DNA of 64,000 nt from Alphaproteobacteria bacterium (GCA_965214705.1 OZ243972.1:2912001-2976000), one strand, 5' to 3'; positions 54,459-64,000 are shown, counted from the stretch's first letter. Notes: a model not told the origin generated them from the letters alone. Numbers and translations: made by a program.

Positions 54459-55160
54459 TTATCCGCCGGGCATTCCCTCTGACATGCCATGAGACGGGAA
54501 CGAATTATTGGAGCGGGACTCGCTGGGATCAGCTGGGATTGGTGGGTATAGGCGGGCTTCGGCAGGGTTCCACGGGTCCACCGGCACCGACGTGACGGTG
54601 CGGGGAGGCGGCGGGGGCCTGCCCTCCACCTCCGCGCGGATGATGGCGACCGCCTCCGGCGAGAGCCCGCCCTGGCCCTTGGCGCGGTCTGCGTCGTTCG
54701 CCGCCTTCTTCGCCGCCCGCTCCCGGTTCAGGCGCAGCTTGTCGGTGCCTTCGATGCGCTTGAGGGTGAGGGCGAGGCGGGCGAGCTCCTCCGTCGACAC
54801 GGGCTCTTCCCGTGCGCTGAGATTGGCCATGGTGGCGAGCACCATGGTCCGCAGGGCCTCGATCAGGATGAGCGCCGTGCGACCCTCGGGCCGCTCGCCC
54901 AGCGCATCCACCCACGCCTTGATGGTGCGGTCGGTCTCCTGCTGCTGGCGGATCATGTCGCGCATGTTCTTGGTGTAGCGGCCGACGGCCGAGCGCGAGC
55001 ATGTCTCGCCCTCGGCCCGGATGCGGGCGGTGATCTCGTCGATGGTGTCGCCGTCCGCGATGGCCTGATCGACGGCCTCGCGCAGCTTGGCCGGCAGGCG
55101 CTTGATGGAGGAGCGGCCGAACGCCGCGGCCGGCGTGCTCTTGGGGGTTTCGTTCTGCAT
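54459..55160 (-). CDS. DUF3486 family protein (Mu gp27-like, putative small terminase)
   Basis: GRSSIKRLP..LRE..D, TIDEI, SRSAVGRY, LIE.LRT, LARLA..L, GLSPEAV..IR; low-complexity tail; start 55160 or 55196. Confidence 0.75.
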   Translation of the reverse strand: MQNETPKSTPAAAFGRSSIKRLPAKLREAVDQAIADGDTIDEITARIRAEGETCSRSAVGRYTKNMRDMIRQQQETDRTIKAWVDALGERPEGRTALILIEALRTMVLATMANLSAREEPVSTEELARLALTLKRIEGTDKLRLNRERAAKKAANDADRAKGQGGLSPEAVAIIRAEVEGRPPPPPRTVTSVPVDPWNPAEARLYPPIPADPSESRSNNSFPSHGMSEGMPGG

Positions 55161-55535
55161 GGCGTGGCTGTGCTCGCGGGATGGTTTCTGGCTCATCCCG
55201 CGATGCTGCCCCGCCCCGCCCACACTTTGCACCGCACCATGGTCCGGGGCACGTTCTCGACAACCGACGAGCAGTCGATCAGGAAATGCCGGGCCGCGCA
55301 GCGGCCCGGAGCGCGCGACCGCGCGCCACGCCGTCAGGCGCGTAGACTTACGAGTATATGTATCGTTAAGCGCGCATGAGAGGACATAGAAGGACATTAT
55401 ACGAATATTTGCAATGGTTTGCTGGAATTGCGCGAAGCATTCTCCCTTTGCGAGGCGACATGAGATGACTTTCAGTCCCTTTCACGTGTTGGGCAGTGTG
55501 TTGACAGCTCGACAGCCCTATGGTCCAATGTCCCC

Positions 55536-56825
55536 ATGAAGACGACGAAGCCCGGAAAACGTGTCGCCAAGACCAAGATTACCATCAACAAGCGTGCCGT
55601 CGATGCCCTCAAGCCCGGCGACAAGCCCTGGATCGCGTGGGATGACAGGCTCACCGGCTTCGGCGTCAGGGTGCACCCCACCGGCGCCAAGTCCTTCATC
55701 GTCAACTACCGTGCGGGTGACGGCGGCAGGAAGGCGCCGAACAAGCAGGTCGTGCTCGGTCGATATGGCAAGATCGCGCCCGGTCAGGCCAGGCGCCTTG
55801 CCCAGACCACCCTCGGCAAAGTAGCCAGCGGCGAGGACCCGGCTGAGGAACGTTCGCAGGCGCGAGGGATGCCGACCCTGGCGGATGCGCTCAAGGACTA
55901 CCTGGCTGCCAATCCCAACCGCTCCGAGAACACCAACAAGCTCTACCGCTACGAGGCCGAGCGCTATCTCGGTGACTGGCTCATCCGCCCACTCGATTCC
56001 ATCACACGGCGCGAGGTGGAGGCGCGCTTCAACCGCATTACCGTGGACCACGGCTGGTCACCGGCCAACCACGCGATGTCTCTGCTGCGTTCCGTCTTCC
56101 GCCGTCCGTGCGTCGATCTCGAAGGTCTGCGCAACCCGGTCGACCTCTGGCTCGCCGCAGGCGGGAAGTTCCATCGCAAGACGCGACGCAAGATCTCCAC
56201 GCCCGCCGAGGTGCTGCCCTGTTGGCGAACCGGCATCGAGGCCGAGGTCAAGATGCCGGCCATGAGTGACGCGCTGTGGTTCGGGCTTTACACCGGCATG
56301 CGGCTGAGAGAAGTCCTGACACTACGCTGGGAGCGAGTAGACATGGCGTCGCTCACCTTCCGCGTCGAGCAGACCAAGACCCGAGTCCCTCTTGAGCTTC
56401 CGATCACCCGACAACTGGAACTTATCCTTGAGAGGCGTCGGGCGGCGAGGTCGGCGATGCCGGTCACCGTGCGGGACTGGGTATTCCCTTCTCCGGCCAG
56501 CAAGTCCGGGCATGTCGAGGACCCGCACTATCTTTACCCGCGCATCACGAAGACGGGCGGTGCGAAGTTCTGGTTCCATGCGTTCCGCAACTGCTTCATC
56601 ACGGTGGCCGAACGGGACTTGATGCTTCCCTCGCCGTTGACCAAGCGCCTTGTGAACCACGCCAGACCCAACGACGTGACGGAGGGTTACGCTGCGGACT
56701 GGACGATCGCCCAGCTCCGAGAGCCGGCTCAAAGGGTTGCCGATCGGATAGAGGCACTGATGAGCCAAGCGCCGGAGGGCACCGCCGAACAGGATGGGAT
56801 TTCAGTCGGCGCCGGGTCTGGCTGA
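55536..56825 (+). CDS. Tyrosine recombinase/integrase with N-terminal arm-binding (DUF4102-like) domain
   Basis: WDDRLTGFGVRVHPTGAKSF...LGRYG...AR..A...GEDPA; catalytic R (YTGMR), K (TKT), HAFR, NH and Y (TEGY) all present. Confidence 0.93.
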   Translation: MKTTKPGKRVAKTKITINKRAVDALKPGDKPWIAWDDRLTGFGVRVHPTGAKSFIVNYRAGDGGRKAPNKQVVLGRYGKIAPGQARRLAQTTLGKVASGEDPAEERSQARGMPTLADALKDYLAANPNRSENTNKLYRYEAERYLGDWLIRPLDSITRREVEARFNRITVDHGWSPANHAMSLLRSVFRRPCVDLEGLRNPVDLWLAAGGKFHRKTRRKISTPAEVLPCWRTGIEAEVKMPAMSDALWFGLYTGMRLREVLTLRWERVDMASLTFRVEQTKTRVPLELPITRQLELILERRRAARSAMPVTVRDWVFPSPASKSGHVEDPHYLYPRITKTGGAKFWFHAFRNCFITVAERDLMLPSPLTKRLVNHARPNDVTEGYAADWTIAQLREPAQRVADRIEALMSQAPEGTAEQDGISVGAGSG

Positions 56826-57124
56826 GACGCGGCCGGCAAGCAATTAGTTTTCGCCCAGCGCTCTCCCTCGCAACTCGATCCTGGGTCGTCGTGGTCCGGC
56901 CCTGCCGGTCACGCCGGCCAACTCCGCGACGCCGGTCTCCGGGAGGATGCCCTCTCGCGGCCGAGCGCACGATCGCCTCTCGTATACGCCCTTCGGAGCA
57001 AGGGATCGGTGAGCCGTCCCACGCGCTGGGCAGCTCTCGGTGCCATCGCGCCTGCTTGCGATCATTGACGAAGCCGCATTGCGGGAGGGGGTATCCCGCT
57101 CCGGACTCATCGCCTGCGCGGCAC

Positions 57125-57484
57125 TCAGTTTCGTGGAACGGCGGGCGAGGGAGCGATAGAAGCGCGTGCGTTCGCCGGAGCGGGGTTGTCCGGCGGCCCG
57201 CTTCGGACCTCCCGCCACAGACGGAGGGCCAGGTCAAACTCGCCATCGACGAGCGCGACCGCGGCGCGCACGGAAACGGACGCATGGCAGCGGTGGAGTG
57301 CGCAGGCCCTGTCCGCAAGGGCGCGCGCCCGGTCGACGCAGCCGCTTGCGAGGGCGGCCGCCGCGCGGCGCCGGCACTGTGCAGCGGCCTGCTCGACGGC
57401 CAGCACCTGGCGCAGGTCGGTCCGGCAGCGGTGGCAAGATGGGCCCTCGATCCCCCTGGCGCCGCAGGTCGGGCAGTTGAGCAC
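57125..57484 (-). CDS. Small Zn-ribbon + helical (TPR-like) protein
   Basis: GTG 57484 after GGAG, 4 nt behind the Hsp70 stop; CPTC...CHRCRTDL followed by Ala-rich helices ending FDLALRLW. Confidence 0.75.
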   Translation of the reverse strand: MLNCPTCGARGIEGPSCHRCRTDLRQVLAVEQAAAQCRRRAAAALASGCVDRARALADRACALHRCHASVSVRAAVALVDGEFDLALRLWREVRSGPPDNPAPANARASIAPSPAVPRN

Positions 57485-57488
57485 CGGC

Positions 57489-59258
<1,770 letters not shown>

Positions 59259-59263
59259 CAAGA

Positions 59264-59935
59264 TCACTCCTGCCTCTCGTTGCGGTTCACGGCCACCTCG
59301 GCGAGGCGCAGAATGTCGCCGCCCCGGGTGTAGCCGCTGAGCAGCTCCTCGACCACCATGCCGCTCCCGACCCCCGCGACCCGGCGGACCTCCGCCGCGT
59401 GCATGGTGCGCGCATCGAACGGCTGGCCTGCGGTCCGCAGGCGCTCGACCCCGAACCCGGACAGCATCCGGTCGAAACGCCTGAGTGCGATCTCGTAGCC
59501 CTCGGCGACGCCGCGGATACCCCGCGGCGGGCGGCGGAACAAGCCGGGGCGTTCGCGCAGCACCGTCGCTGCCTCCAAGCCCCGGACCAGGGCGTTGCGC
59601 ACCTCGAGAGCAGAGCGCAGGCAGCGGTTCTCGGCCTCGCGCGAGACCCGCGTCTCGAATGCCGCCAGGTCGTCCTCGCGGCGCTTCATCAACGCCGCAG
59701 CGCCGTCGTAGCGTGCCGCCGCCTGGGCAAGCTCCCGGCCCGCCTTCGACTGCTCGCGGTTTTGCAGCCGGACCTCCTGGCGCAGCGCCGCAAGCTCGGC
59801 GAACAATTCGCGCAGATCTGGCTCCGGCGCTATACCGGTCCCGCCGTCGCCGCTGTCCTCCTCCTCCAGTTCGTCGAGCCAGTGCCCGAAATCCTCCAGG
59901 GCGCGGCGCTTCCAGTCGTTGTCAGGCTCACTCAT
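59264..59935 (-). CDS. GrpE-like nucleotide exchange factor with N-terminal extension
   Basis: Coiled coil ELAALRQEVRLQ; C-terminal GQPFDARTMHA...VVEELLSGY...ILRLAEVAV beta domain. Confidence 0.85.
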   Translation of the reverse strand: MSEPDNDWKRRALEDFGHWLDELEEEDSGDGGTGIAPEPDLRELFAELAALRQEVRLQNREQSKAGRELAQAAARYDGAAALMKRREDDLAAFETRVSREAENRCLRSALEVRNALVRGLEAATVLRERPGLFRRPPRGIRGVAEGYEIALRRFDRMLSGFGVERLRTAGQPFDARTMHAAEVRRVAGVGSGMVVEELLSGYTRGGDILRLAEVAVNRNERQE

Positions 59936-60233
59936 CCTCTGCGCCTTCCGCCGCAATCAGCGCCTGCAGGCCCGGGGTGGCACGCCCGCGTGGCCGCGCC
60001 TGCACCAGCGCGTCCAGAGCCAGCTCGAAATCGCCGTGCCGGGACATCCCGAACATCGCCGTCTCCACGCGCGAGCGATCGTCCTTCAGGGCTTCGTAGG
60101 CGGCCACGATCCGCTCGCTGTACGCCGGCTCCCGGCTCGGCGGATGCGCCCGGATCAGCTCGAGGTAGCGCCGGCGAACCTCCTCCCGCGAGGCGGAGGA
60201 GGAAAGCCCCAGAGCAAGATAGTGAGCCAGCAT
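59928..60233 (-). CDS. Small J-domain-like protein (HPPS in place of HPD)
   Basis: HYLALGLSSSAS.EEVRRRY..L...HPPSREP....I..AYEALKD..SR; 101 aa. Confidence 0.85.
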   Translation of the reverse strand: MLAHYLALGLSSSASREEVRRRYLELIRAHPPSREPAYSERIVAAYEALKDDRSRVETAMFGMSRHGDFELALDALVQARPRGRATPGLQALIAAEGAEDE

Positions 60234-60236
60234 CGC

Positions 60237-62972
60237 CTACGCCCTCCGGCGACCCTGCTTGCGGGGAAAGAGGAAGATGCGCGCCTCCCGGCTCAGCCCG
60301 CCGCGAAGCCCCGCCTCCTCGCACGTGCGGGCGCTGCGGTCCAGGTTGTGCCGAATCTCAGGCTCCGCCCTGGCCACCTCCGCCACCTCCCTCAGCAGCG
60401 GAGAGGGAACCCCGCGCAGCCAGTGCCGGTCGATCAAGCCTTCCAGCGTCTCCAGCTCGCGTGACGCCTCGTCGTCGTCGAACAACGAGGTCTGGCAGGG
60501 CTGGCCCGGCAATCCCGCCTGCAGGCCGACTCGCAGCGCATCCAGGAACGCGTCGAGAGACGGCTCTTCGCCGGACGGCTCTTCCTCGGGTCCCAGCATA
60601 TCGCCCAGCAGGTTCGAGAGCGGTCCCGGATCGTCCCCGCCGAACAGCGGCTCGGGCGGGTCCAGAAGCCCGAAGTCGAATGTGTGAAGCGCCTCGCGCA
60701 GGATGCCCGCGGTGACCCGGGCAAGCCGCCCGGCTCCCGCCCGGAGCCGCTCGCGCTCGGTCGGGGCTGCCGATTGCAGCGCCTCAACGAAGCGCCTGGA
60801 ATCGTCGTCGTCACCTTCCTGGTAGCGGATCGCCGCAAGGTACAGGAGCAGCAACGGATCCCGCTCCGCCTTGCTCGTTCCGGCCAGGCGAAGCCCGATC
60901 TCGGCCCGCACAGCAGCCCGGTCGCCGCAGTCCATCAGGATGTCGAAGACATCCAGCAGGCCGTCGTCCCGCTGGCCGCGCATGATCGCGCTCCACCAGT
61001 CGGCCAGGACCGGGGCGACATGGAGACGCCCGTATAGGATCCCAAAATCCGCAGGAAGCGGAGCGAGAAGACCGACCGCCTCCTCCGCATCGATGTCATC
61101 GATCATGGGCGCCCTGAGAGCCAGAAGACCTAGCACGGCATGCGTCATCTCGGGCGTGACGTTCTTGACGGTGCTGTTCGCTTCCAGCTCGTGAAGCAAC
61201 AGCGCCAGAGTCCTGATCTGCCCAGCAGGAGGCAGGGCGGAAAGACGGGGAGCCACGACCGCGGCGGCATCCCCGCCCGACGACACCAGGTCCAGCAGAA
61301 GCCTCTTCACCGGCACGATGTCTGTCAGCCGGGAGCCCCCCAGCGCCTCGGCCCGCTGCAAATCCCGGGCCGCCAGCTCGAACCGTCCGCTCTTGCGGCT
61401 CTGGTCCGATGACTTGAGGAAGCCCACGGCCTGCAGGCCAACGATGCGCTCGTCATGCGGAGCGCGCCGCCGGGCCTCGGCAAGAGCCTCCTCCGCCCGC
61501 CGGTACGCATTGCCGGCGTAGTGAAGCTCGGTCAACTCAAGCCAGGGCTCAGCATCCTCGGGAAATCGGGCCGCCGTGTCCTCCAGCACCCGCCGCAGAC
61601 GGTTCCTGTCCTGCCTGCGGCCCCGCAACAGCTCCGCCAGGAAGCGATAGCCGTCGCGGTTGCCGGGATCGGCCAGCAGGCTCTCCTGCATCAGATCGGC
61701 AAACACCGTCCCGGCCTCGAAGGACCGCCCATCGAGAAGCAGGATCAGCTCCCGCACCTTCGGGGTCGGCAGCAGCTCCGGCTGCACGCTCCGATGTCCG
61801 ATCCTCGCCAGCGCCTCGTATACGCGGCCCCGAACCAGAGCATGATCCCCGGACCGGGGGAACTCCTCGCGAAGGCGGCCCAGCAGGGATCCCGCCGCCC
61901 CGGGGTTCCATGCGCCCAGGGAGGCCTGCTGAAGAACCAACCCGATCCTGGCGATCAGGCCCGGAACCCGCCTGGCCGGCAGAAGGTGCTGTGCCAGCCG
62001 CTCCACTGCGCCCATGGAGAGGTGGCTGCGCGCGGTGGCCAAGCCCGCAATCTGCACCAGATCGACAAGCGCCGGCAGGGGATCGTCGGGGCTGAGTGCA
62101 TCGGCCAGGCGGCTCATCAGTCGCTCGATGACCCGCTCGCGCTCGTTCCTGCGAAGAGCCTGGCGCAACTCCGCGCCCAGCTCCGAGACCGTCGTGCCGT
62201 CCGTCCCCAGGGCCCGCTGAACCCTGGACGAGCCGCCCTTGCCCCCGCCCCCGCCAGCCCGCCGCAACTCGGCGACGATGCCGGCAAGCGCGAACTCCCC
62301 GGGCAGAAGGTCCGCCGCCCGGCGCAGGCCCTCGTCGTCGCCGGCACCGAAACACGCCATCGCCTTGCAGAACACGCGCCAGGCCGCGAACGGCGAGCGC
62401 CGGTGCAGCCCGCGCAGCAGATCCGCCGCACGCTCCCACTCTCCCGCGTCCATCGCGTCGAGGCCGCGCATGACGTGATCCGCGTCGCGGCGAAGCGCAT
62501 GGCTCGCATCGAGGGCGTCCAGACTCGCCCAGCACCGCCGGGTCACCAGCCTGTCGGCGAGCAGGCGCTCAGCCCCGGCGATCGGCGATCCCCCCTTCAG
62601 GTATGCCGCGTAGGTTGCGACCGCCTCGCCAGGATCAAGATGGCGGAGGTAGCACACCAGATCCTCCTCCCCCAGCGCCCCGGCAGGGATGGATGACCGC
62701 TGTTCGGCGGCCCGCGCGCGCATGGCGGCCGACTCCTTCTTCTGACCTCTCCGCGCCAGTTGACGGGCCCGCTGCGTCAAGGCGCAGAAGTGCAGGCACG
62801 CCTTGCCCGCCGGGTCGTGCTCCCCGTCCGGCACCCGCTTCAGGAGATCGAGGGCGCCGCGGGCGTCCCCGCTGGCCAGCCGCCGACGGGCCTGATTCAG
62901 CTGCTGGACGGCGGTGACCTTGCCAGGCCGCTTGCGCCTGCGCCCCTTGCGGCTGTGCTTCCTCGACGCCAT
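60237..62972 (-). CDS. Large alpha-helical TPR-like protein (about 910 aa)
   Basis: Basic N-terminus MASRKHSRKGRRRKR; TPR-like repeats (ARFPEDAEPWLELTELHYAGNAYRRAEEALAEARRRAPHD); SPFAAW..F.KA motif; acidic C-terminal region. Confidence 0.8.
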   Translation of the reverse strand: MASRKHSRKGRRRKRPGKVTAVQQLNQARRRLASGDARGALDLLKRVPDGEHDPAGKACLHFCALTQRARQLARRGQKKESAAMRARAAEQRSSIPAGALGEEDLVCYLRHLDPGEAVATYAAYLKGGSPIAGAERLLADRLVTRRCWASLDALDASHALRRDADHVMRGLDAMDAGEWERAADLLRGLHRRSPFAAWRVFCKAMACFGAGDDEGLRRAADLLPGEFALAGIVAELRRAGGGGGKGGSSRVQRALGTDGTTVSELGAELRQALRRNERERVIERLMSRLADALSPDDPLPALVDLVQIAGLATARSHLSMGAVERLAQHLLPARRVPGLIARIGLVLQQASLGAWNPGAAGSLLGRLREEFPRSGDHALVRGRVYEALARIGHRSVQPELLPTPKVRELILLLDGRSFEAGTVFADLMQESLLADPGNRDGYRFLAELLRGRRQDRNRLRRVLEDTAARFPEDAEPWLELTELHYAGNAYRRAEEALAEARRRAPHDERIVGLQAVGFLKSSDQSRKSGRFELAARDLQRAEALGGSRLTDIVPVKRLLLDLVSSGGDAAAVVAPRLSALPPAGQIRTLALLLHELEANSTVKNVTPEMTHAVLGLLALRAPMIDDIDAEEAVGLLAPLPADFGILYGRLHVAPVLADWWSAIMRGQRDDGLLDVFDILMDCGDRAAVRAEIGLRLAGTSKAERDPLLLLYLAAIRYQEGDDDDSRRFVEALQSAAPTERERLRAGAGRLARVTAGILREALHTFDFGLLDPPEPLFGGDDPGPLSNLLGDMLGPEEEPSGEEPSLDAFLDALRVGLQAGLPGQPCQTSLFDDDEASRELETLEGLIDRHWLRGVPSPLLREVAEVARAEPEIRHNLDRSARTCEEAGLRGGLSREARIFLFPRKQGRRRA

Positions 62973-63024
62973 GCCCGCTTGCTCGATGGTCAGGGTAGCC
63001 GGAGCCCTGGGAGCCGGCAGGCGA

Positions 63025-63330
63025 TCATATCCGCGACGTAGGCTTAGCGGTAGCCCGTGCATCCGCAGTGTCCTCCGGGATTGCCTCGGCCGCGGCGAGA
63101 GCCGCCGACATGGCTTCGGTCACGCGCGAGGCGTCGCTCGCCTTGTGCAAGGCCTTGGAGATCGCAGCGAGCGCCTCGACCCGACTGGCGGGATCCTCGA
63201 TACCGTTTGCAACCCGCGATGCTTTCACCAGTGTTGCAATCGGGCTCGGCGGGGACACAGCCTCGTCTATGGAATCGGACAAGACGGTAGGCTCAGCGTC
63301 GAGATGGCTCGGACTCATTCCGGGTGCTGA
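63025..63330 (-). pseudogene. Probable truncated helical-repeat gene fragment
   Basis: A..IEDPASRVEALAAISKAL...ALAAAEAIPE resembles one unit of a TPR/HEAT-like repeat; its 5' end runs into an inverted repeat at 63328-63372. Confidence 0.4.
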
Positions 63331-63453
63331 CTCAGTCTGAAAACTGAACTGGATTGATTTCAAACAGAGTCACTCCGTTTCACAGTTGACACGAGCGGTA
63401 AAGTTCGATCACACTTTACCGATAACTAGCGACATACGCCGAGGGAATAAGTG

Positions 63454-63684
63454 ATGCCGATAGGACCGAACGGAGAGAAACGACCGCAGTCGTCCCATTC
63501 CGCAGCCATTATGGTTGCCAAGATCGCTACCGGCGAAATCGAGGAGGAATACGCCGAGGGTGATGCGGGGGGTTCTAAAGAAGGACCGCTCAAGAAGTCG
63601 GTGGGGCCGGTGTTTCTACGAGTGGCGAAAGATGACCGGGCCGCTCGGGGTACGCGGGGTATGAGGCTTCAAAGGGCTAAGTAG
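63454..63684 (+). CDS. Small hypothetical protein of the MP.GP.GEKRP...IATGE type, recalled as IS/transposon-associated
   Basis: MPIGPNGEKRPQSSHSAAIMVAKIATGEIEEE after GAGGGA; TTGACA upstream at 63386. Confidence 0.65.
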   Translation: MPIGPNGEKRPQSSHSAAIMVAKIATGEIEEEYAEGDAGGSKEGPLKKSVGPVFLRVAKDDRAARGTRGMRLQRAK

Positions 63685-63687
63685 TGG

Positions 63688-63864
63688 TCAATTTTGGTAC
63701 AGAGGAGGCCAGCGTACTCGTCCGGTCTTCAAATTCACGACAGCTCCTTGTTGGAGCAGAACCTTTAGGGCATAAAAATTACGTCTCGCCTCGCCGAGAG
63801 TACTAACGAACACCTTTATTTCAGCTTTGGTCATAGTTCTTTTCGAGGATTGTGGCCGGGTCAT
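63688..63864 (-). CDS. Small hypothetical protein (58 aa)
   Basis: GGAG-N7-ATG at 63864; upstream TTGACA (63958-63953) N16 TAGAAT (63936-63931); convergent with 63454..63684. Confidence 0.5.
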   Translation of the reverse strand: MTRPQSSKRTMTKAEIKVFVSTLGEARRNFYALKVLLQQGAVVNLKTGRVRWPPLYQN

Positions 63865-64000
63865 TTGCTCACTCCATGAGGTTGAATGACTCTCTTGGGC
63901 CTGAGTGGTCGCCGCCACTCAGGCCCATCTATTCTAGGCCAAGCCTTAGAAATGTCAAGCCGTCTCGCTGAACGGCTCAAGATTCCCAAAGAACTTCCAC

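Follow-up and report, generated by a model that had tools for sequence, protein, structure and literature searches.

A conserved five-gene TPR-J-GrpE-Hsp70-zinc ribbon cassette, probably an accessory Hsp70 machine

Positions 57125-62972 of a 64,000-nucleotide (nt) stretch of DNA from an Alphaproteobacteria bacterium (GCA_965214705.1 OZ243972.1:2912001-2976000; the whole stretch is called the window here) hold a cassette of five tightly packed genes. Analysis of open reading frames (ORFs) places all five on the minus strand, in the order tetratricopeptide repeat (TPR)-like scaffold, J-like protein, GrpE, Hsp70 and zinc-ribbon (Zn) protein. We consider it probable, taking both parts together, that the cassette is one operon encoding a self-contained accessory Hsp70 machine apart from the housekeeping DnaK system, and that this machine acts on its own scaffold, or from it, in the manner of the model set out below.

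Five coupled genes and their products

The cassette comprises the following genes, with lengths in amino acids (aa).

60237-62972, minus strand: TPR-like scaffold gene, 911 aa from its ATG (ORF; Pfam TPR_19)
59928-60233, minus strand: J-like gene, 101 aa (ORF; Pfam DnaJ match below the cut-off)
59264-59935, minus strand: GrpE gene, 223 aa (ORF; Pfam GrpE)
57489-59258, minus strand: Hsp70 gene, 589 aa from an ATG, or to 59267 and 592 aa from an upstream GTG (Pfam HSP70)
57125-57484, minus strand: zinc-ribbon gene (CxxC..CxxC), 119 aa from a GTG start (ORF; without known family)

An earlier reading of this DNA from the sequence alone (the sequence-only reading) had described five co-oriented genes, each coupled to the next, with gaps of 3, -8, 5 and 4 nt along the cassette, and the ORF positions bear this out. 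The start of the GrpE gene overlaps the J-like gene by 8 nt, and the GTG start of the Hsp70 gene would turn the third gap, of 5 nt, into a 4-nt overlap; the scaffold frame would encode 941 aa if extended to 63062. The kinds of protein that had been proposed (TPR-like, J-like, GrpE, full Hsp70 and a helical CxxC..CxxC protein) are upheld by Pfam, sequence profiles and structural models. For the GrpE the identity stood but the 'extra N-terminal region' did not, the Pfam GrpE match spanning residues 61-224 of a 230-aa frame, which is not unusual. The same reading had seen no CIRCE element (controlling inverted repeat of chaperone expression), and we likewise found none in the whole window at up to three mismatches to the consensus, making no search for an RpoH-type promoter. 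A scan of 56700-63500 returned no sigma-70-like promoter and a single terminator-like site, which lies inside the Hsp70 gene, and the upstream regions show no conservation between the window's clade of cassettes and the distant clade.

The genome, made up of three contigs labelled C1, C2 and C3 (7.92 Mb), has a separate housekeeping dnaK (PF00012, 932 bits) with an adjacent grpE (PF01025, 172.6 bits) at C1:184725-187275, so the cassette Hsp70 is not its only DnaK. Besides this housekeeping pair it holds the cassette Hsp70/GrpE pair three times, and a housekeeping DnaK is also present in all five of the other carrier genomes checked. The cassette Hsp70 matches Pfam HSP70 with 470.5 bits and falls below the cut-offs of both DnaK equivalogs (NF001413, 499.5 bits against 648; TIGR02350, 494.2 against 822.55) and of the HscA equivalog (TIGR01991, 397.9 against 708.55). 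These scores, and the dnaK-grpE pair elsewhere in the genome, agree with the earlier proposal of a dedicated, non-housekeeping Hsp70.

In an alignment with the genome's own DnaK, the cassette Hsp70 keeps the phosphate-binding motifs, the linker (VLVDITP) and the substrate-binding domain (SBD). It has a 24-column gap after KRLMGSGER, corresponding to loss of the DnaK 76-101 segment, an 8-aa insertion in loop L1,2 of SBD-beta, just after the linker strand, and a shortened lid. The arginine preceding IINEP is retained, and we take it to be R167 of E. coli DnaK, the residue that contacts DnaJ. The nearest solved structure is a DnaK (2v7y, 382 bits). The window's protein ends in ...LDEILFYLE, and a tail of the form [ED]xL[FLY][FY][ILM] followed by 0-3 residues stands at the extreme C terminus in 92 of 93 sequences, the remaining one having ILFYVE.

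As a single sequence the J-like protein reaches 26.9 bits with Pfam DnaJ (PF00226), against a cut-off of 27.8. A profile of its family matches 48 solved chains at E ≤ 0.01, nearly all of them J-domain proteins (best 3.8e-10), and the family consensus T-P-E aligns under the H-P-D of solved J-domains; a J-domain fold is supported by these comparisons. The HPD motif itself occurs in 0 of 121 family members. The window's protein has PPS at this position, and in its clade the triplet is PPS (33), RPG (25), then PPG, RVG, RPA and RTG; in the distant clade it is TPE (30), PPE (16) or SPE (8), with one PPS and one PPG. The protein carries a conserved C-terminal extension of about 40 aa, has neither a G/F region nor a zinc-finger domain, and is not accompanied in the cassette by a class A DnaJ. 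The GrpE reaches 62.5 bits with Pfam GrpE, lies below every NCBIfam GrpE equivalog cut-off, and is predicted to be a dedicated GrpE-type nucleotide exchange factor.

The scaffold has a single Pfam match (TPR_19, 33.9 bits, residues 491-545) and no model in NCBIfam or PADLOC. Its AlphaFold2 (AF2) model, built on a 62-row alignment, is helical throughout (mean predicted local distance difference test score (pLDDT) 83.9), with no strand-containing or enzyme-like domain, and divides into the following regions.

Scaffold N terminus: polybasic
Scaffold residues ~20-770: solenoid
Scaffold residues 774-832: linker, acidic, disordered and of low confidence in the model
Scaffold residues 835-901: helical bundle

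Residues 1-25 contain a median of 10 lysine or arginine residues and are polybasic in both clades. The top Foldseek matches are long TPR scaffolds (Ski3, Ctr9, Naa15, IFT-A and APC subunits) at template modelling (TM) scores of 0.13-0.20, a result that supports the modelled fold class, a long TPR solenoid, and nothing beyond it. Among 8000 candidates scored, 181 relatives were found at E ≤ 0.001, nearly all of about 900-940 aa and named 'hypothetical protein' throughout in their source. A profile search of 1.84 billion cluster representatives returned 1074 proteins at E ≤ 0.001 and 214 at E ≤ 1e-30, and look-alikes in the ESM Atlas are just 'hypothetical protein' and generic TPR clusters.

The Zn protein, about 100 aa long in most relatives, consists of an N-terminal four-cysteine zinc ribbon followed by four TPR-like helices (residues 24-46, 50-63, 67-79 and 83-95 of an AF2 model with pLDDT 89.4). 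C4, P5, C7, C17, R19 and C20 are invariant in 43 sequences. No family covers it in Pfam, NCBIfam or PADLOC, and its profile matches consensus TPR proteins (E 5.8e-11) and Hop (E 2.1e-4). Foldseek gave no match at E ≤ 0.001; the weak top matches are small TPR domains of Hsp70/Hsp90 co-chaperones, a class to which most small TPR entries in the PDB belong.

Conservation and descent of the cassette

Genome loci were collected by a motif scan with one genome per species, giving 68 loci, and completeness was counted on the 60 with at least 3.7 kb downstream. From their titles the 68 belong to Alpha- and Gammaproteobacteria, Binatia, Latescibacterota, Vicinamibacterales/Acidobacteria, Spirochaetia and one 'Syntrophobacterales' metagenome-assembled genome (MAG). 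The five genes are complete and in order in 57 of the 60, covering at least six phyla. A further 73 JGI metagenome loci, with GC contents of 0.30-0.69, were drawn from distant full-length TPR relatives; here the order is complete in 36 of the 41 with room downstream, even though the TPR proteins are 22-46% identical to the window's and the Hsp70s have a median identity of 53%. The TPR and Zn genes thus accompany this Hsp70 clade almost without exception, which is what a neighbourhood survey had been proposed to establish. Because of this strict linkage we regard the TPR and Zn proteins as partners or clients of the cassette Hsp70 and not of DnaK; they may be clients, sensors or co-chaperones. 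No flanking gene is common to more than nine of the 68 loci.

The genome exceptions are L036, L080 and L081, the last two being partial matches to the TPR query. Among the metagenome loci, L106 and L111 match in TPR only, L107 is rearranged, and the query used did not detect J in L115 or Zn in L155. In 2 of 400 further genomes sampled from the phylum there is a more distant version, with J-GrpE-Hsp70-Zn present and the TPR gene partly detected.

Two of these sets of loci have features of their own. At L036 (9944-15712, Vicinamibacterales) a convergent 945-aa ORF on the opposite strand takes the place of the J-like gene after the 944-aa TPR gene, of which it is perhaps a duplicate, inverted tail to tail. 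One metagenome (L114-L149, contigs with names beginning Ga0272440_) contributes 16 cassette loci with GC 0.30-0.40, in which the TPR proteins match to about residue 780 of the window's and some 500 nt precede the J-like gene. These cassettes are a distinct subfamily, perhaps present in several copies in one organism.

The strict linkage bears on a simpler account, in which the cassette would be a spare general-purpose DnaK-DnaJ-GrpE set that assists bulk folding during some particular stress, the TPR and Zn proteins being minor additions to it. The motifs of the nucleotide-binding domain, the linker and the SBD are indeed kept, and the best solved relatives are true DnaKs. The cassette also includes a GrpE, which HscA and HscC are thought not to use (passages of PMC8215388). 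We nevertheless judge this account unlikely: the J-like family is without HPD and the cassette without a class A DnaJ, the 911-aa scaffold and the Zn protein stay with the Hsp70 even where the TPR proteins have diverged to 22-46% identity, CIRCE was not found in the window, and the Hsp70 lies under the DnaK equivalog cut-offs and stands apart in its altered SBD loop, shortened lid and distinctive tail.

Patchy distribution, which the sequence-only reading had expected, was borne out among 60 relatives of the window's genome: the cassette is present in 3 of 20 genomes of the same genus and in 0 of 40 others. It was not found in any of the plasmid, phage and IMG/VR collections. In a FastTree phylogeny of the Hsp70, rooted on six distant cassettes, there is a single supported clade for each of the Acidobacteriota (23 rows), the Latescibacterota (7) and the Spirochaetota (7), and the Pseudomonadota and Binatota fall together; four of the five phylum groups with several rows are one clade each, and the Binatota require two changes. 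The window's cassette Hsp70 is 78, 78, 69, 74 and 71% identical to those of five carriers, as compared with 76, 71, 67, 66 and 62% between the housekeeping DnaKs of the same five and that of the window's genome. Because the cassette Hsp70s are as alike as the DnaKs or more so, and because the distribution is patchy, these sequence comparisons fit horizontal acquisition by each lineage followed by descent, with the proviso that the margins are small and that rates may differ between the paralogues. The cassette site is stable within lineages, except in the window's genome and in one Vicinamibacterales MAG, where a repeat unit of about 6.2 kb occurs in five full copies and two broken ones.

Contigs about 93% identical to the cassette are present in the 'sponge metagenome' runs X13 and X17, from two studies (the longest 4215 nt, with 275 differences), and further pieces are present in the 'coral metagenome' run X10. 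These occurrences favour a host-interaction module of animal-associated symbionts, in which the eukaryote-like TPR scaffold and the Hsp70 would act on or mimic host proteins, and the polybasic N terminus of the scaffold could in principle be a targeting signal. The same cassette, polybasic N terminus included, is however found in 36 of the 41 metagenome loci (73 in all), which span GC contents of 0.30-0.69 and come without a stated habitat. No secretion-system gene or recognisable export domain was present in the cassette or in the flanks examined (no prediction tool for signal peptides was applied), and an Hsp70 cycle inside the cell depends on ATP and on the GrpE encoded alongside. We therefore hold a host-directed role to be very unlikely.

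A scaffold-remodelling model

In the model we favour, the solenoid, probably together with the TPR-like Zn protein, would form a platform and would perhaps also be the main client. The J-like protein would bind this platform through its conserved C-terminal extension and thereby position the Hsp70, which would itself dock through its acidic-hydrophobic tail (..EL[DE][DE]ILFY[ILM][GE]). Cycles of ATP hydrolysis, reset by the cassette's own GrpE, would then act on the scaffold assembly, remodelling either it or a single specific protein that it carries, and the thing remodelled could be the scaffold's linker or its state of assembly. Because the only enzyme encoded is the Hsp70 ATPase, the expected output is remodelling or holding of protein, and we infer that a particular protein is remodelled and that general folding is not the purpose. 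Docking on a TPR surface is suggested by the conservation of the Hsp70 tail. Eukaryotic Hsp70 docks by its EEVD tail on TPR co-chaperones, and a comparable case of remodelling is that of Hsc70, which together with auxilin takes apart the clathrin solenoid lattice.

Docking of the tail was modelled by complex prediction with three chains: scaffold residues 18-775, Zn residues 1-100 and, as the partner, the C-terminal 89 aa of the Hsp70. The prediction scored 0.35 (0.35, 0.15 and 0.38 in the individual runs), with contact agreement of at least 46% and a partner pLDDT of at least 60. The best of three controls scored 0.00; one of the three exchanged the scaffold and retained the Zn chain. In calibration of the tool, the mark is reached by 58 of 80 solved complexes and by 2 of 110 mismatched pairs; at scores of 0.60 or less the corresponding numbers are 7 of the 80 and both of the mismatches. 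The modelled complex lends weak support to the scaffold as receptor of the Hsp70 tail, nudging the odds in that direction.

Several points weigh against the model. A J-like protein lacking HPD may possibly not stimulate the ATPase, and the Hsp70 cycle could then differ from the one proposed. The Zn protein, with its modelled co-chaperone-like helices, is a possible alternative receptor of the Hsp70 tail. The docking prediction used alignments of our own and three chains and so differs from the calibration, in which a pass at a score of 0.35 is more often wrong than right unless the pairing is likely beforehand. Distant TPR homologues occur alone, without the other four genes, at L106 (7938-10271) and L111, both on AT-rich contigs (GC 0.30) with a scaffold homologue of about 777 aa; at L106, the one of the two inspected, the next genes lie on the opposite strand. 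Finally, expression is hinted at by the coral metatranscriptome run X20, in which contigs fall on 22 of 30 cassette bins and leave 8 uncovered, and where carry-over of DNA is possible.

A bolder extension of the model would see in the cassette an independent bacterial invention of the eukaryote-style docking of Hsp70 by its tail on a TPR protein, made portable as a five-gene machine. The HPD-less J-like protein and the private GrpE would drive ATP-dependent assembly or disassembly of the scaffold, in a way similar to the uncoating of clathrin by Hsc70 and auxilin, and the state of the scaffold would serve as a switch, sensing a protein that is foreign or damaged and altering how the cell behaves. 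We offer this extension as a speculation that has perhaps one chance in several of being right.

Mobile surroundings, known systems and significance

The cassette is part of a larger repeat, and its left neighbours in the window are mobile modules.

56941-63072 (end at 63060 or 63072): repeat unit, three copies, with sharp bounds in blastn against the genome
55536-56825, plus strand: intact tyrosine integrase, 429 aa (Pfam Arm-DNA-bind_3 and Phage_integrase; context only)
54459-55397, minus strand: phage Mu Gp27-like protein (Pfam Phage_Mu_Gp27, 92.8 bits; context only)

The repeat unit consists of the five genes with 184 nt past the stop codon of the Zn gene and about 100 nt upstream of the scaffold start. 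Copy A is that of the window. Copy B (C1:3384822-3390944, 97.0% identical over 6123 nt by blastn) lies between two unrelated DDE transposases, 27% identical to one another, with two integrases nearby. Copy C (C3:1312022-1317803, 99.97% by blastn) has its Zn gene split by a 2750-bp IS66 insertion, and beyond it lies the integrase unit that also adjoins the window's copy. Neither copy A nor copy B is disrupted, and dN/dS between them is 0.18-0.54 across the five genes, a sign of selection that we count in favour of a working accessory machine. Inspection of the unit's ends by eye revealed neither inverted repeats nor target duplications. One DDE_Tnp_1 transposase (for example L082:14640-16406), which also lies beside copy B, has 66 copies in the genome at more than 80% identity, and for this reason we call the genome rich in insertion sequences (IS).

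To the left of the cassette, an integrase unit (55288-56940, 1.65 kb) abuts it and is separately repeated, with four further copies at 92-99.7%, and a Mu Gp27-like unit (54515-55247) has five further copies at 86-91%, one of them on C2 (both by blastn). Since each of these units is multi-copy, the left flank is a mosaic of repeated mobile modules. On the right, in window positions 63000-64000, GC falls from about 0.70 to 0.565 directly after the cassette; beyond the right end of the window (L085:1062-4559) are short frames without Pfam matches, a 326-aa IS-type transposase with helix-turn-helix (HTH) and DDE domains, and an HU-like DNA-binding protein. The cassette had been placed between an intact integrase and IS-like debris, and the 429-aa integrase on the left and the IS-type transposase frame on the right match that description. 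The further claim that it is mobile cargo held for this genome, with three copies at 97-99.97% beside integrases and IS elements, but not outside it and the Vicinamibacterales MAG, where the chromosomal sites are stable within each lineage.

Other observations concern the surroundings of the copies. Fragments of the 3' end of the cassette (window 56941-57587) occur at C1:4107313-4107682, C1:4115744-4116004 and C3:1733396-1733724 with 94-99.7% identity, the two on C1 being separated by about 8 kb; the fragments cover the end of the Zn gene with the downstream 184 nt, and the Hsp70/Zn junction, and look like relics of further broken copies. Upstream of copy C on C3, L083:6075-8087 encodes a 670-aa transposase-like protein with DDE_Tnp_1 and DDE_Tnp_1_assoc domains and a weak match to DruA of Druantia (30.4 bits). 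The contamination figure of the assembly is 8.72.

That the repeat unit amounts to little more than the five genes and short ends in two unrelated genomes (56941-63060/72 here and about 6.2 kb in the Vicinamibacterales MAG) raises the idea of an autonomous mobile element moved by its own proteins. Recombinase, transposase and nuclease folds are lacking in all five proteins, the ends are without terminal inverted repeats or target duplications visible by eye, the unrelated IS elements and integrases that flank the copies can account for movement, and the site is stable in most lineages. We rejected a self-moving cassette as extremely unlikely.

Two kinds of neighbouring gene were considered as parts of the system and set aside. 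Genes conserved upstream of the cassette in Vicinamibacterales (a DegT aminotransferase, a GNAT protein, a cytochrome c and a TPP enzyme) reflect synteny within the lineage. A large co-oriented ORF ends directly ahead of the TPR start at many loci and might have been a sixth, variable 'effector', but the ten that were scanned are unrelated ordinary genes: Sortilin/BNR (twice), AcrB, DUF3604, a TonB receptor, an M3 peptidase, Fic, hydantoinase B, an ASPIC/TPR/redoxin protein and an RRXRR-HNH protein. In a Paracoccaceae MAG (L017:8315-9913) a 532-aa protein with RRXRR and HNH domains lies directly upstream of the cassette, and a second such protein occurs among the 116 nearest-flank proteins.

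The mobile setting is also the starting point for a conflict or anti-phage role, in which the TPR solenoid would sense an invader protein and the Hsp70 cycle would act as an ATP-dependent threshold switch. It accords with this idea that the cassette sits in DNA rich in IS elements and integrases, three times in this genome, that it is patchy among relatives (3 of 20 and 0 of 40, as above), and that a Vicinamibacterales MAG has five full and two broken copies. The 116 flank proteins, from 36 loci, include PADLOC matches to mad3 (3), mad8 (3), SoFic (2), PtuB (2) and one DpdE/ZorD-like helicase, and an AAA_21/AAA_15 ATPase lies downstream in L047. DnaJ-mediated sensing of phage has reportedly been seen with bNACHT25 (PMC12169576). 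Passages of two papers offer further precedents: HSP70 and GrpE with DnaJ- or TPR-fused proteins in GAP1-N2 GTPase systems (PMC7159879), and the Hsp70-like CnuD with HEAT repeats in CoCoNuT systems (PMC11090510).

Against such a role, the five proteins contain no nuclease, protease, TIR, pore or other effector domain. PADLOC-DB 2.0.0 has no family for the TPR, J, GrpE or Zn proteins and matches the Hsp70 only with PDC-M61B (E 8.5e-4, 16.1 bits). The same 116 flank proteins are mostly metabolic, transport or otherwise unrelated ones, with PhyH in 6, Amidohydro_2 in 4 and Creatininase in 4, and they include two integrases and two HNH proteins. The cassette's absence from the plasmid, phage and IMG/VR collections, the clade-wise Hsp70 tree and the stable sites within lineages are likewise unlike fast-moving defence islands. 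The sequence-only reading had named anti-phage defence as a possible role; with no PADLOC model, no effector domain, ordinary neighbours and just scattered defence matches, that suggestion was not sustained, and we now find it doubtful.

We return to the cassette as an accessory chaperone machine. Like the housekeeping DnaK-DnaJ-GrpE system, it has a DnaK-type Hsp70, an exchange factor of the GrpE family and a partner with a J-domain fold; it differs in scoring below the DnaK and GrpE equivalogs, in a 101-aa J-like protein without HPD, in obligatory TPR and Zn proteins and in having no CIRCE found. It differs from the HscA/HscB iron-sulfur cluster chaperone in its HscA score, which is under the cut-off, and no isc family appears among the neighbouring frames scanned.

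The likeness to HscC is closer. Passages of Mayer's review (PMC8215388) describe HscC as having lost the DnaK 76-101 segment, as having a 4-8 aa insertion in SBD-beta loop L1,2, as not interacting with GrpE and as pairing with the tail-anchored J proteins DjlB and DjlC. The cassette Hsp70 is similarly accessory and apparently horizontally acquired, has its own J partner, and shares the loss of 76-101, the L1,2 insertion (8 aa here) and the shortened lid; the resemblance is one of described features and of the alignment with the genome's own DnaK. Unlike HscC, the cassette carries a GrpE (57 of 60 and 36 of 41 loci) and a J-like protein that is small and, by eye, soluble, and HscC is without TPR and Zn partners.

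Two published systems share broader features. In GAP1-N2 GTPase conflict systems, found mainly in actinobacteria and firmicutes, HSP70 and GrpE stand beside a DnaJ-domain or TPR protein in accessory neighbourhoods (passages of Kaur et al. 2020, PMC7159879), as they do here; the GAP1-N2 GTPase and the FNIII-repeat protein of those systems are absent from the cassette and its immediate neighbours by Pfam. In CoCoNuT systems, CnuD combines an Hsp70-type module with alpha-solenoid repeats in an accessory prokaryotic setting; it goes together with McrBC-type GTPase/nuclease genes, its ATPase motifs are described as degenerate, and it has a proposed role in RNA binding (passages of PMC11090510). The cassette Hsp70 by contrast has intact ATPase motifs and a GrpE, and Pfam finds no McrB or McrC genes.

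A resemblance of another kind is that to docking of the EEVD tail on Hop, CHIP, SGT and PP5, with which the cassette has in common a conserved acidic-hydrophobic Hsp70 C terminus and co-encoded TPR proteins. Here the motif is ILFY[ILM][GE] and the putative partner a solenoid of about 750 aa instead of a three-repeat clamp, with no carboxylate-clamp residues identified; the likeness is an analogy in possible working, not one of homology or membership.

The claim that the cassette has no characterised counterpart was confirmed in so far as none was matched in Pfam, NCBIfam, PADLOC or the literature. We found no published description of a TPR-J-GrpE-Hsp70-Zn cassette, with the reservation that the supplementary neighbourhood tables of PMC7159879 and PMC11090510 might list one. 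The nearest theme in print, going by passages of the former, is the HSP70 and GrpE variant of the GAP1-N2 systems, which requires a GTPase absent here. The cassette counts as a specialised Hsp70 system of the sort represented by HscA/HscB, HscC/DjlBC and DnaK1/DnaJ3, the last a specialised Hsp70 pair of cyanobacteria (passages of PMC9239167). It departs from what defines each of the families that were compared by test.

As a test case the cassette has all its partners side by side and offers several handles: the HPD-less J-like protein, the invariant Hsp70 tail, the four-cysteine ribbon and the polybasic end of the scaffold. Its relatives are diverse enough for co-variation analysis and structural work. 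Two questions become testable with it: how an Hsp70 cycle can be driven or gated without a canonical HPD-bearing J domain, and whether the docking of an Hsp70 tail on TPR proteins occurs in bacteria too. Its ecology adds to the interest, with apparent spread among unrelated phyla and close relatives in animal-associated metagenomes.

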